Positions 1,299 to 63,967 are shown, numbered from the whole stretch's first letter. The stretch is DNA of 63,967 bases, filler included, from Reclinomonas americana ATCC 50394 (GCA_048213135.1; 7 parts of 4 records of this genome joined end to end with filler, not necessarily neighbours in it); one strand, 5' to 3'. Notes: generated by a model not told the origin, from the letters alone. Made by a program: numbers and translations.

Positions 1299-1609
1299 NN
1301 NNNNNNNNNNNNNNNNNNNNNNNNNNNNNNNNNNNNNNNNNNNNNNNNNNNNNNNNNNNNNNNNNNNNNNNNNNNNNNNNNNNNNNNNNNNNNNNNNNNN
1401 NNNNNNNNNNNNNNNNNNNNNNNNNNNNNNNNNNNNNNNNNNNNNNNNNNNNNNNNNNNNNNNNNNNNNNNNNNNNNNNNNNNNNNNNNNNNNNNNNNNN
1501 NNNNAGAGAGAGAGAGAGACGGAGGCAACGATTGCATCACCAAAGGCCACATCCATCCATCCACTGACGTCCTAATCTACCAGAGGCAGCGAATCCCTTG
1601 ACACACGTC

Positions 1610-4008
<2,399 letters not shown>

Positions 4009-60605: not shown

Positions 60606-61034
60606 GTTGCATGTGCGGCGTTGTGCGAGTGAGTTGTTGGCCACGCGCTTCTGTAGACCGGTGACGGCCGCCGGCGGGGGCGATTGAGGCGCCAGCGAGG
60701 ATATAGGTTCGCTGGGGCCAGGTGGTAGGGGGAGGGGTGGCACGGGCGAGAAGGTGCCACCGCGGCGGGCGGCAATGTCGCGGGGGGAGGGTCCTGCATA
60801 GAAGGGAAGGGTGGGTGAGATGCGGCGGAAGAGGGGGAAGGGGGGAGGGAAAGGGGGGAAGGCGAAAGGGGGGAAGGGAAAGGGGGAAGGGAAAGGGGGA
60901 GGGAAAGGGGGAAGGGAAAGGGGGAAGGGAAGGGNNNNNNNNNNNNNNNNNNNNNNNNNNNNNNNNNNNNNNNNNNNNTTAATTAATTAANNNNNNNNNN
61001 NNNNNNNNNNNNNNNNNNNNNNNNNNNNNNNNNN

Positions 61035-61207
61035 AAGAGCTCTTCTTTTGCTATGTGTAATTGTGATCGTTTATGTTCCGATAAACCTGACTTCCTGACT
61101 TGTTTATTGCAACATTCACATAACACTCTTTCACCTTGCTTTAACTTTAGTTTTTCTTTATTATTGATCCAGTATTGTTTATTATACTCTTGATTAGTTT
61201 TTGACAT
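61035..61207 (-). CDS. Small C2H2-like zinc finger protein (3' end in gap)
   Basis: YNKQYWINNKEKLK..VLCECCNKQVRKSGLSEHKRSQLH, a pattern I associate with large-DNA-virus and PLV small proteins. Confidence 0.7.
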
Positions 61208-61218
61208 TTATTTTATAC

Positions 61219-61286
61219 TATATAGTCGTGACAATTCTTTAAATGGTTTTTAATGAAAAGGGATTTAAAGGATTGACACGTATATA
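61219..61286. promoter_or_regulatory. Inverted-repeat bidirectional promoter candidate
   Basis: 61227-61244 cgtgacaattctttaaat and 61263-61280 atttaaaggattgacacg are 16/18 inverted matches; each is followed outward by TATATA and the ATG of a divergent ORF. Confidence 0.6.
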
Positions 61287-61300
61287 ACCTATCAAGCAAA

Positions 61301-61612
61301 ATGGAATCAACTAAAAAGACTTTAACCAAACGATTACAATGTGTCAATGAAATCACAAAAGCATTTGAGGGTAACAAGAAGAACACTGTTTGTGCAAAGT
61401 GTAATGAATCATTACGAAGAATAGAAAATGATTGGAAATACAGACACTTACATAAGAAATGTTATCTTGAATTAAGAAGAGAATTAGATTGTTTAGAAAA
61501 TGTAATGAAATATGACATAGCAAGAATGTTAGACATGAAATGTCATATCGAAATAGCAGAAGATATAATCGATGATGTCAAATATCTATTGGATTATAGA
61601 AACCATGTTTAA
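61301..61612 (+). CDS. Hypothetical protein with CxxC...HKKC putative Zn-binding motif
   Basis: 103-aa ORF containing CAKCNESLRRIENDWKYRHLHKKC; TATATA upstream. Confidence 0.7.
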   Translation: MESTKKTLTKRLQCVNEITKAFEGNKKNTVCAKCNESLRRIENDWKYRHLHKKCYLELRRELDCLENVMKYDIARMLDMKCHIEIAEDIIDDVKYLLDYRNHV

Positions 61613-61650
61613 TTAATCATATTATTATGTCGGTTTAGGATATAATAATA

Positions 61651-61854
61651 ATGTTCTTTTGTAAATTTTGTAAAGAAAAGATTAAATATCCTCTTGATCA
61701 ATATATTTGTTGCTTACATGATAAATGTACAATGCGAATAGTGACACGAGTATATGCTATGCAAAGTATTAAAACATTGGAAATTTTAACAGTCTTAGAT
61801 GATGAAACCTATAATACAATCATTAATGAATTGATGTCTTATAGTGCAAAATAA
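61651..61854 (+). CDS. Hypothetical protein with CxxC...HxxC motif
   Basis: 67-aa ORF CKFCKEKIKYPLDQYICCLHDKC; tataataata directly before the ATG. Confidence 0.55.
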   Translation: MFFCKFCKEKIKYPLDQYICCLHDKCTMRIVTRVYAMQSIKTLEILTVLDDETYNTIINELMSYSAK

Positions 61855-61949
61855 TGATGATCATGTATGTTGATTATACTTAAATGATCGAGAACTGGGA
61901 AATTCAAAATATATGTGGCTTTGATATTCCAACCACAAGATATATAATG

Positions 61950-62111
61950 CTACTTCTTTTTAAGTGGTTTCTTTAAATGTAAATAATCTTTTATACTTGA
62001 TAGTTTCATATTCTTTGCAACCTGTTTTACTATCTTATTACCGATACCATTTTTCTTTGCATTTAAAACAGCTCTAAAGAACTTCATTTGTTTAATAGAT
62101 TTAGATGGCAT
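61950..62111 (-). CDS. 53-aa basic protein (below ORF-track cutoff)
   Basis: Manual translation MPSKSIKQMKFFRAVLNAKKNGIGNKIVKQVAKNMKLSSIKDYLHLKKPLKKK*; ttatataat immediately before the ATG. Confidence 0.65.
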   Translation of the reverse strand: MPSKSIKQMKFFRAVLNAKKNGIGNKIVKQVAKNMKLSSIKDYLHLKKPLKKK

Positions 62112-62133
62112 ATTATATAATTTGCTTATATAT

Positions 62134-63186
62134 TTATTTTCTAAATCCTTGACTTCTTAATGCATCGGCAACCTTGGCAATGGAAGTGTTTTTACCAATT
62201 GCTGATCTAAAACGTTGTTCTGCTGTTGGTGCTGGTTTATACTGTTTTGACTTATTCTTTACTGGTATGATTATACCCATTTGGATTGCTTGGGCTATGA
62301 TTTGTGTGTTTTCTGCTTCTCTTATAGCGTCCTCTTTTTCTATTTCCTTTCGCGCTATCTGTCTTTGCAATATCATTCTTGTGTCATATGCCTGTCGTTC
62401 TTCATCGGTTTCAGGAATAGGTGATCCTATTACTGGTGATACTGTTGGTGATCTATTCGATGGTACATTTGACATACCCGTCACCGCGCTTGCAATTCTT
62501 TGTGTCGTTAACGGAGATCGTGATGTAGGTGGAATTGGTGTCAATGGTCTTGATGGTTGTTGTGGTTGTGGTAATGCTAATGTTGAACTAGACACAGTTG
62601 GTTGTGGTGGTCTAAATGATGGTCTTGGTATTTGTGACGGTATAGTAGTTGTTGTTGTAGTTACTGGAGATACTTGAGAAGTGTATATTGCTGGTACAGG
62701 TGATGGTGGTAATGGGGGAAGAGGAGATCTCAATCTTTGTTGTTGTTGCATAAGTATTTCTCTATCTCTCTCAGCTTGTTGTTTTTCTAACATTGCTAAT
62801 TGTTGATCAGATATAAGTTGTCTTAAATTAGCATTAATCTCCTGCAATCCAAGATCTGCCATTGTAGCGTTTTTTGCCTGTGTATTTAATTTACCCTCTA
62901 CTAATTTCATAATATCAGCACCGACATATTCTTCTTTTAACAATCCAGATGCAAGTTGATCTTTGTAGTATTTCTTTAATGCTTTCTCATTTTGCTGTTT
63001 GATTTTAAGATCATTTATCTCTGACAAAGCCTTGGCCCGAGATGCTCTGTTTTGTAATGTTATGTTACGCAAATAAGTTGGTGAAGGGATATCATCAGCT
63101 TTAGACTTCTTTGGTTTTGATCTAACCACTTTAGGTTTAGCTGATTTAGGTTTTTTCATTTTTGTTTTCTTGGCACTTTTTGGCAT
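62134..63186 (-). CDS. Hypothetical protein: Lys-rich N-terminus, coiled coil, Pro/Thr/Ser-rich middle
   Basis: 350-aa uninterrupted ORF in AT-rich DNA; ttatataactc before the ATG. Confidence 0.85.
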   Translation of the reverse strand: MPKSAKKTKMKKPKSAKPKVVRSKPKKSKADDIPSPTYLRNITLQNRASRAKALSEINDLKIKQQNEKALKKYYKDQLASGLLKEEYVGADIMKLVEGKLNTQAKNATMADLGLQEINANLRQLISDQQLAMLEKQQAERDREILMQQQQRLRSPLPPLPPSPVPAIYTSQVSPVTTTTTTIPSQIPRPSFRPPQPTVSSSTLALPQPQQPSRPLTPIPPTSRSPLTTQRIASAVTGMSNVPSNRSPTVSPVIGSPIPETDEERQAYDTRMILQRQIARKEIEKEDAIREAENTQIIAQAIQMGIIIPVKNKSKQYKPAPTAEQRFRSAIGKNTSIAKVADALRSQGFRK

Positions 63187-63212
63187 GAGTTATATAACAT
63201 GACAAAAGAAAA

Positions 63213-63722
63213 TTAAAAGTATATTCCATATAATGATCGTCTTTCTGGTTGTGGTGCTGATTGCGATGTAGGAATATTAATTGGTTGGGTAACTGGTTGT
63301 TGTTGAATAACTGGTTGTTGTTGAATAACTGGTTGTTGTGGCATCAGTTTAGACATCATTTCACGCATGTATGTCAAGTCTTTTTGTACTTCTTCAAATT
63401 GTTTTTCTTTCTTGGATTCCTTTTCAACTTTAACAGGTCGCTTTATATGTATTTCATCATCTTTTACTATATCCTTATTTTGTATTTCATTCAATCTAGA
63501 TGTTAGTTGTGTGATTTGTGATTTCAATTCTTCTGTTGTGGTTTCTGCTTTTGATTTCTTATCTTCTAATGATTTCTTGCGTGCTTCTTTCATCTTTTCA
63601 ACTGCTTTCTTTCGCGCATCTGTCATTACATATTTTCTTTTTGGTTTCGCATATGCCGTGAAATTTTCAGAGTTTTCAACCTTAACAGTATCGGTAGTAT
63701 TGCTAGTAGCCATATCGCTCAT
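63213..63722 (-). CDS. Hypothetical basic coiled-coil protein
   Basis: 169-aa ORF with KPKRKYVMTDARKKAVEKMKEARKK and an 18-nt tandem repeat encoding QQPVIQ; tatatag upstream. Confidence 0.8.
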   Translation of the reverse strand: MSDMATSNTTDTVKVENSENFTAYAKPKRKYVMTDARKKAVEKMKEARKKSLEDKKSKAETTTEELKSQITQLTSRLNEIQNKDIVKDDEIHIKRPVKVEKESKKEKQFEEVQKDLTYMREMMSKLMPQQPVIQQQPVIQQQPVTQPINIPTSQSAPQPERRSLYGIYF

Positions 63723-63753
63723 TTCGCTAACTATATATTAAGACTTGAAAAAT

Positions 63754-63966
63754 TTAAATGAACTCAATTAACATGGTCCAATCGTGTTCATTTAAATCAA
63801 TTAGTCTATTATACTTGTCTGTTAATCTAACGTGCATTGTGGAGAAAGATGATGTCTTTATTTGCATTGGTCTGAGATACTCATAATCTATGTTTTCATA
63901 TGCAGTCACTTTAATTGGGACCACTGCAACAATATCTGTAAACTGATCAAGTCTATCAGAGTATAC
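63754..63966 (-). CDS. C-terminus of a putative minor capsid (penton, single jelly-roll) protein; 5' beyond window
   Basis: Manual translation VYSDRLDQFTDIVAVVPIKVTAYENIDYEYLRPMQIKTSSFSTMHVRLTDKYNRLIDLNEHDWTMLIEFI*, matching the recalled penton C-terminal pattern I(L/V)AxxP...IxY...xLTDxxxxxIDLNxxDW. Confidence 0.65.
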   Translation of the reverse strand, partial: VYSDRLDQFTDIVAVVPIKVTAYENIDYEYLRPMQIKTSSFSTMHVRLTDKYNRLIDLNEHDWTMLIEFI

Positions 63967-63967
63967 A

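Follow-up and report, generated by a model that had tools for sequence, protein, structure and literature searches.

Polinton-like viruses (PLVs) and virophages are abundant, and a proposed role for them is that of an inducible defence deployed by protists against giant viruses; most of their lineages are known from metagenomes only, with no host. PLV genomes measure ~14–40 kb, often with terminal repeats (size range: PMC12220804); the conserved cluster of Tetraselmis PLVs comprises a major capsid protein (MCP), a minor capsid protein, a packaging ATPase and a tail-fibre protein, with a separate F5/8C gene within the capsid module (10.1101/2025.10.09.676808); and Tetraselmis viridis virus S1 has been described as a PLV without need for a giant virus (PMC11502894). 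Endogenous and free PLVs and virophages are well documented in protists (PMC10120064, PMC12220804, 10.64898/2026.06.19.733378, 10.1101/2025.10.09.676808). The stretch analysed here, which we call the window, comprises 63,967 nucleotides from the assembly of Reclinomonas americana ATCC 50394 (GCA_048213135.1), in which seven scaffolds are artificially joined. We put the probability at roughly 80% that its last piece, positions 61035–63967, is the opening 2.9 kb of a scaffold that derives from a small icosahedral double-stranded DNA virus of the PLV/virophage type. Viruses of this type possess a double jelly-roll MCP, a single jelly-roll penton and a packaging ATPase of the A32 type.

The reading is anchored on a minus-strand frame entering from the window's edge, in which the original prediction had noted a resemblance to the C-terminal ends of penton-type, single jelly-roll capsid proteins. 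This frame is open to the window end, and its peptide reads exactly as quoted there (Table 1). A phmmer search with the 70-residue fragment against 1.84 billion representative proteins recovered 11 matches at E ≤ 0.001, ten of which were proteins of 241–261 aa aligned at their extreme C-termini. The best match, P0001, is 61% identical to the fragment (E 3.8e-19, residues 177–245 of 246), and the fragment aligns gap-free with ten homologues. One repetitive protein of 695 aa, P0009, matched through short repeated stretches and was excluded from the alignment (A1) as a probable chance match. The profile compiled from ten homologues and the fragment was searched against the PDB and matched the capsid protein 'P1v1' of Paramecium bursaria chlorella virus 1 (PBCV-1; 8h2i_bG) at E 2e-10 in two stretches; the second covers the window-encoded C-terminal region and has an i-E of 0.082 when taken alone. 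Among the five rows returned in all, PBCV-1 'P1' (E 0.57) and an adenovirus 'penton protein' (E 1.2) were non-significant. P1 is the PBCV-1 penton; the entry titles name the capsid only. When the 70-aa fragment alone was scanned against viral_contigs, none of its 15 pattern matches was confirmed.

The fold was examined on P0001 rather than on the window protein itself. An AlphaFold (AF2) model of P0001, built with the homologue alignment, reached a mean predicted local distance difference test score (pLDDT) of 79.8, and Foldseek retrieved 30 PDB matches at E ≤ 0.001, ranking the mavirus penton first (E 1.5e-8), followed by PBCV-1 P1v1, adenovirus penton bases and the Sputnik penton. A second look with VIA placed PBCV-1 P1 (6ncl_a6) at Z 14.4 with a root-mean-square deviation (rmsd) of 2.8 over 131 residues, Emiliania huxleyi virus 201 (EhV-201; 8rbs_K) at Z 12.4, P1v1 (8h2i_bG) at Z 12.1, Sputnik (3j26_N) at Z 9.4, the mavirus penton (6g41_B) at Z 9.3 and adenovirus penton bases at Z 7.2–8.9. 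Among predicted viral structures in BFVD, a protein of Tetraselmis viridis virus S1 came first (E 2.2e-15, 15% identity); next came klosneu- and mimivirid proteins labelled 'putative minor capsid', a DUF5901 protein from Pyramimonas orientalis virus and adomavirus LO5, and the minor capsid proteins of mavirus and Qinghai Lake virophage were also recovered. In the model, the N- and C-terminal parts together make up a single jelly-roll core, into which a domain is inserted at residues 46–150; the window fragment aligns with the last 69 residues of P0001, which form jelly-roll strands. The profile match to P1v1 and the penton fold of P0001 together bear out the resemblance noted at the outset, and the family of the edge frame is therefore a penton family. 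The frame itself is the C-terminal end of a penton gene whose N-terminal ~180 codons lie beyond the window.

With the pentons of PBCV-1, EhV-201, Sputnik, mavirus and adenovirus, the window family shares a single jelly-roll with an inserted domain, and its profile matches P1v1. At ~250 aa, its pentons are far smaller than P1v1 (504–530 residues), the EhV-201 penton (663) and adenovirus penton bases (403–472), and identity to all solved structures is 6–19%. In the virion, penton pentamers would close the twelve vertices of a capsid made of MCP trimers. The inserted domain probably forms the outward-facing part of the vertex. When compared by itself, it matches phage contractile sheath, flagellin and FliD cap domains (Z 6.8–8.7, rmsd 2.3–2.9, 84–97 residues).

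A metagenome scan with the three closest homologues and the fragment identified ten loci, one of which, L002, is close. This contig of 9054 nt (GC 0.355) encodes a penton that is 49% identical to P0001 over its whole length. Its gene order begins with a Ser/Thr-rich, fibre-like open reading frame (ORF) of 955 aa, open at the contig end, followed by ORFs of 513, 279 and 241 aa and then, divergently, by the 251-aa penton and ORFs of 172, 442, 52 and 28 aa, the last very basic. Four genes of the 2.9-kb piece recur along the second half of L002 in the same order and orientation (Table 1). The 241-aa ORF is a Pox_A32 packaging ATPase (PF04665; E 8.8e-15, 55.3 bits, the cut-off being 22.8), and none of the remaining six L002 ORFs scored above its Pfam cut-off. 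In L002 the fibre-like gene, the likely MCP (the 513-aa ORF), the ATPase and the penton gene occupy no more than 7 kb, which matches the morphogenetic module of PLVs. Genes grouped as closely as this are characteristic of PLVs and virophages and uncharacteristic of giant viruses. The original prediction's call of a PLV- or virophage-like element gains support from this syntenic relative, in which the penton has as neighbours an ATPase of the A32 type, a likely double jelly-roll MCP and a fibre gene. By analogy with L002, base 63967 would be followed by the ~180 missing penton codons and then, divergently, by the ATPase, a gene of ~280 aa, an MCP of ~500 aa and the fibre gene, and the DNA would be packaged by the A32-type ATPase.

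With moderate confidence, we read the 513-aa ORF of L002 as a double jelly-roll MCP. Its predicted structure was compared with 48,161 solved chains, and the top six were all double jelly-roll capsid or scaffold proteins (Z 9.1–10.7, residues 28–502), namely those of PBCV-1, African swine fever virus (p72), faustovirus, EhV-201, PBCV-1 Vp54-type and orf virus Orfv075 (D13-like). Most of the named BFVD rows were MCPs, whether from giant viruses and virophages or from MELD virus and Tetraselmis viridis virus S1, and a few were unrelated proteins. A word-indexed search of 5.8 billion proteins recovered three relatives besides the ORF itself, and a pattern-based scan of IMG/VR found none. The longest recorded contig is 6065 nt for both the penton P0001 and the MCP homologue P0015, with 8488 nt for the cluster mates of both, and 12807 nt for both the penton P0003 and the MCP homologue P0013; these equal values suggest, short of proof, that penton and MCP lie on the same contigs.

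Compared with described systems, the penton finds its best predicted-structure match among the Tetraselmis PLVs (S1, Tsv-S2/S3), and L002 displays the same kind of module. The match to Tetraselmis viridis virus S1 is only 15% identical and does not mark a close relative; the closest sequence relatives are environmental proteins. L002 and the contigs behind P0001–P0004 and P0013–P0015 share with the window four collinear genes, three of them at 36–52% identity, a similar GC (0.355 against 0.321 in the 2.9-kb piece) and the same upstream motif (described below). These contigs are environmental and carry no host information, whereas the window copy lies in an assembly with eukaryotic scaffolds. 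The lineage is otherwise known only from environmental DNA and has no named relative in the databases searched; pattern-based scans of IMG/VR found no close relatives, only the distant giant-virus contigs L001 and L012.

On the content of the window, a PLV and a virophage are indistinguishable. The penton fold, the small capsid module and near-start motifs are also common to virophages (mavirus, Sputnik, Qinghai Lake) and endogenous mavirus-like elements. We regard it as unlikely that the element is a strict virophage (Maveriviricetes) rather than a PLV. In favour of a virophage, the best fold matches include the pentons of mavirus and Sputnik, and promoter-like motifs near start codons would suit transcription by a helper virus (helper link: PMC11502894). 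Against these, the penton's best BFVD match belongs to a PLV, Tetraselmis viridis virus S1, and giant-virus pentons outscore virophage pentons in VIA. The Ulp1-like cysteine protease of virophages was seen in none of the seven L002 ORFs (E ≤ 0.1; the contig is incomplete), nor, at the thresholds used, in the seven ORFs of the equally incomplete window scaffold. One distant family member speaks for the virophage alternative: the penton homologue of L004 (24% identity) immediately follows an ORF that carries an Ulp1-type protease domain (Peptidase_C48, E 2.8e-5; L004:3-1535 and L004:1565-2359), which is a virophage- or Polinton-like arrangement.

The reach of the penton family extends well beyond small viruses. 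Of 2799 candidates, 162 matched the penton profile at E ≤ 0.001; among the 120 that were listed, no name goes beyond 'hypothetical protein', and three carry PF19254 (DUF5901), a domain with no mention in the literature searched. In IMG/VR, a distant homologue (L001, 26% identity) resides on a 405-kb viral contig. Another (32% identity over 105 residues) resides on L012, an 8-kb contig of a giant-virus metagenome-assembled genome (MAG) with a GC of 0.23, and further distant members, within a family range of 21–32% identity, occur on contigs of up to 153 kb. For L003–L012, the domain scan took in 30 of the 34 ORFs that reach 90 aa and passed over four short ones that overlap others or lie at an edge. 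On L012, positions 1492–3423 encode a 644-aa protein that combines a DUF5901/penton-like region with a discoidin (F5/8 type C) domain, and nearby genes include A32-like, DnaJ, SNase and TBP-like ones. Its members thus come from giant viruses, from virophage- or Polinton-like elements and from PLV-like contigs, and the window fragment is assigned to a small virus because of its close relatives only.

This breadth raises a second alternative, in which the fragment would be a piece of a Nucleocytoviricota (giant virus) genome or of a giant endogenous viral element; we judge it very unlikely. The best PDB match of the family profile is a PBCV-1 vertex protein (E 2e-10), DUF5901 is weakly matched, and distant homologues lie on the 405-kb contig, on the giant-virus MAG contig with its TBP and A32-like genes, and on contigs of 100–150 kb; the AT-rich, dense segment with short promoters near the ATG also resembles giant viruses. 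Those relatives are only 21–32% identical, however, whereas the close relatives (49–61% identity) lie on short contigs, the longest recorded for the closest clade (P0001–P0004 and cluster members) being ≤ 13 kb. In L002, moreover, the fibre gene, MCP, ATPase and penton fit within 7 kb, and the MCP is without a Pfam match at E ≤ 0.1. The giant-virus core genes PolB, RNA polymerase, VLTF3 and D5 are absent from the 2.9-kb piece and the 9 kb of L002, stretches so short that this is weak evidence.

Several points weigh against the assignment to a small PLV- or virophage-type virus. The 2.9-kb piece holds 70 penton residues and no MCP, ATPase, replication gene, integrase or terminal repeat, and the viral type is read from one syntenic relative, L002, whose 442-aa ORF is weakly related to the 350-aa window ORF (32% over 41 residues). 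The model of the L002 MCP is poor (pLDDT 49.2, from a shallow alignment), its BFVD TM-scores are 0.2–0.3, best Z-scores of 7–8 are common for models without a true match, and the ORF has neither a PDB sequence match nor a Pfam match (E ≤ 0.1). The penton fold matches have a large global rmsd and low TM-scores (0.3–0.5) outside the jelly-roll core, because the core and the inserted domain were matched separately. The penton family is not specific to small viruses, as the 405-kb L001, the giant-virus MAG contig L012 and the contigs of up to 153 kb attest, and its best PDB sequence match (PBCV-1 P1v1) and the weak DUF5901 matches point to giant-virus pentons. Finally, the statistic for the upstream motif is partly inflated, intergenic DNA being more AT-rich than coding DNA and TATATA being self-complementary.

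In composition, the piece stands apart from the rest of the window. The original prediction had described an abrupt switch to AT-rich, tightly packed ORFs, and this was confirmed: GC is 0.321 in 61035–63967 against 0.553–0.596 in the six other scaffolds, and seven uninterrupted ORFs amount to 89.5% coding sequence with gaps of 22–95 nt. It is scarcely credible that the segment is non-viral, a run of ordinary AT-rich DNA from a eukaryote, an organelle or a bacterium in which ORFs arose by chance. No curated Pfam cut-off is attained by any of the seven ORFs, and Rfam gave no match in the 2.9-kb piece at E ≤ 0.1 and none across the whole window at the gathering score, which would suit such DNA; PHROG gave no convincing match to the ORFs. 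Two of the ORFs, however, have significant homologues, a block of four genes is kept in a contig with an A32 ATPase, and the family has a penton fold. A blastn search of the 2.9-kb piece against phage records gave no match. In the other scaffolds, three of 12 long stop-to-stop frames contain fragments of eukaryotic domains (Sec63 Brl, tubulin-tyrosine ligase and the N-terminus of threonine synthase), so that these scaffolds have the look of nuclear DNA from a eukaryote with a high GC content and split genes.

Table 1. Features of the AT-rich piece and its junction, with counterparts in the environmental contig L002 (aa, amino acids; pI, isoelectric point; E values are those of the pairwise comparison)
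Feature	Position	Strand	Description	L002 counterpart
Artificial linker N44-TTAATTAATTAA-N44	60935-61034	.	No biological junction
Partial ORF, 57 codons	61036-61207	-	Start at 61207, runs off scaffold start; pI 9.5; CxxC...H-x5-H, C2H2-like cluster
ATATAG	61218-61223	-	16 nt before ATG of 57-codon partial ORF
ATATAA	61282-61287	+	19 nt before ATG of 103-aa ORF
103-aa ORF	61301-61612	+	6 Cys and 4 His; CxxC and HxHxxC clusters
ATATAA	61640-61645	+	11 nt before ATG of 67-aa ORF
67-aa ORF	61651-61854	+	CxxC...CCxHxxC
53-aa ORF, very basic	61950-62111	-	pI 10.8; fourth gene of the block kept in L002	52 aa (L002:8747-8905); 36% identity; E 5e-6
ATATAA	62113-62118	-	7 nt before ATG of 53-aa ORF
350-aa basic protein	62134-63186	-	pI 10.3; Lys-rich N-terminus; Pro/Ser/Thr/Gln-rich centre	442 aa, same position; 32% over 41 residues; E 2e-5
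ATATA[AG]	63190-63195	-	Upstream of 350-aa ORF
169-aa basic protein	63213-63722	-	pI 9.4; conserved beside penton gene; tblastn with L002 proteins matches 63345-63707	172 aa; 44% identity over 112 aa; E 3e-25
ATATAG	63731-63736	-	14 nt before ATG of 169-aa ORF
Penton (single jelly-roll vertex) gene, C-terminal 70 codons and stop	63754-63966	-	Open to window end; 5' part beyond	251-aa penton; 52% identity; E 7e-26

A short upstream motif, ATATA[AG], recurs throughout the piece, where it stands 7–19 nt before all six start codons, and it lies ≤ 30 nt upstream of seven of the nine starts in L002. Relative to the segment as a whole it is strongly enriched there, seven of its 16 sites in the 2.9-kb piece falling within 3.1% of the positions; control hexamers of the same composition were mostly without enrichment, the exception, TAATAT, overlapping the motif. 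We consider ATATA[AG] a candidate promoter element, a lead rather than a finding, and the genes would accordingly be pictured as transcribed from short promoters with this hexamer 7–19 nt before each ATG. So short a distance to the ATG fits poorly with a canonical nuclear TATA box, given the TATA-to-start-site spacing, and appears closer to what is seen in the short promoters that giant viruses and virophages use. Virophages and PLVs of the Phaeocystis globosa virus virophage (PgVV) type reportedly share promoter motifs with their helpers (PMC11502894; 10.1101/2022.07.28.501842), and ATATA[AG] differs from the AAAATTGA-type early motif reported for PgVV (10.1101/2022.07.28.501842). Between the partial minus-strand ORF and the 103-aa ORF (61195–61300), two oppositely oriented ATATA[AG] motifs each follow a TTGTCAC/TTGACAC word, which also precedes the motif of the 350-aa gene and that of the 442-aa gene of L002; word and motif may together form a bipartite promoter.

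As to the host, the original prediction had cautioned that integration was not shown, and this caveat stands, the linker, one of six such N44-TTAATTAATTAA-N44 copies in the window, being the sole junction of the piece. We see about even odds that the element is integrated in the GC-rich eukaryote of the other scaffolds, and the alternative, which concerns its state and not its identity, is just as probable: the scaffold may be free or episomal virus DNA, or DNA of another organism, that was co-assembled or co-binned. In keeping with that alternative, GC differs strongly (0.32 against 0.55–0.60), the only junction is artificial, and the scaffold begins inside its first ORF with no host flank. 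A tblastn search with seven L002 proteins likewise gave nothing significant in the six other scaffolds, where the sole match had an E of 0.21. On the side of integration, endogenous PLVs and virophages are reported to be common in protist genomes (PMC10120064, PMC12220804, 10.1101/2025.10.09.676808), and short-read assemblies of integrated multi-copy elements would be expected to break inside the repeated element. The large GC difference is no argument against integration, because endogenous virophage clades are described as differing in GC content. At the end of the preceding GC-rich scaffold (60811–60934), a purine-only run of degenerate GGGAA/GGGGAAAGG-type repeats extends up to the linker and may be a satellite or the cause of the assembly break.

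A more elaborate scenario, which we hold to be doubtful, is that of an uncharacterised small-virus lineage endogenous in the GC-rich eukaryote, virophage-like, with ATATA[AG] read by giant-virus machinery, and acting as an inducible defence against giant viruses. Inducible defence of this kind has been described for Tetraselmis and Cafeteria elements. Reading by giant-virus transcription machinery would be favoured because the motif is too near the ATG for a canonical nuclear TATA box. If the element is integrated or reproducibly host-associated, it would supply a host for an environmental lineage in which the penton, the capsid and the genes beside them are annotated nowhere, and ATATA[AG] would become a testable promoter motif in the search for the helper virus. 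As the evidence stands, it is a further PLV-like fragment within an assembly from a eukaryote, a common finding.

The remaining ORFs of the piece fall into two groups, both noted in the original prediction: three small ORFs with Cys/His clusters near the scaffold start, whose clusters can be read directly from the translations, and three basic ORFs following the penton gene (Table 1). For the first group, no relatives were detected in Pfam or PHROG, large protein databases not having been searched. The 57-codon partial ORF has a match to Pfam TDBD at E 0.014, below the curated cut-off; the 103-aa ORF, which has no match in either collection, is possibly a zinc-binding regulator; and the 67-aa ORF, with sub-threshold Pfam matches to SLX1_C (E 0.0048) and DUF7557 (E 0.0014), is a possible small zinc finger. 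All three probably encode accessory DNA-binding or regulatory proteins.

The basic proteins of 169, 350 and 53 aa probably have virion-internal, scaffold or minor capsid roles, a suggestion made because their place after the penton gene is conserved. Their description as coiled-coil proteins finds only sub-threshold Pfam matches to coiled-coil families among the window ORFs, no dedicated coiled-coil predictor having been run. The 169-aa protein, a candidate scaffold or minor virion protein, recovered only viral clusters in the Atlas, at 0.91–0.92 with recognition under the guide value, which is a lead at most. The 350-aa protein has 17 Lys/Arg among its first 50 residues and is Pro/Ser/Thr/Gln-rich at about residues 150–250; it has no homologue of near length, no Pfam match and no usable Atlas match, and is a candidate core or minor virion protein. 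The 53-aa protein weakly matches a phage family of unknown function (phrog_16759, E 0.0012). In L002, the 28-aa ORF (L002:8933-9019), which is Arg/Lys-rich, has ATATAG upstream and follows the 52-aa gene, could encode a protamine-like core peptide; no counterpart was found in the corresponding window gap, 61855–61949. The 53-aa protein and its 52-aa counterpart in L002 both start with MPS and share a conserved FFR a few residues later.

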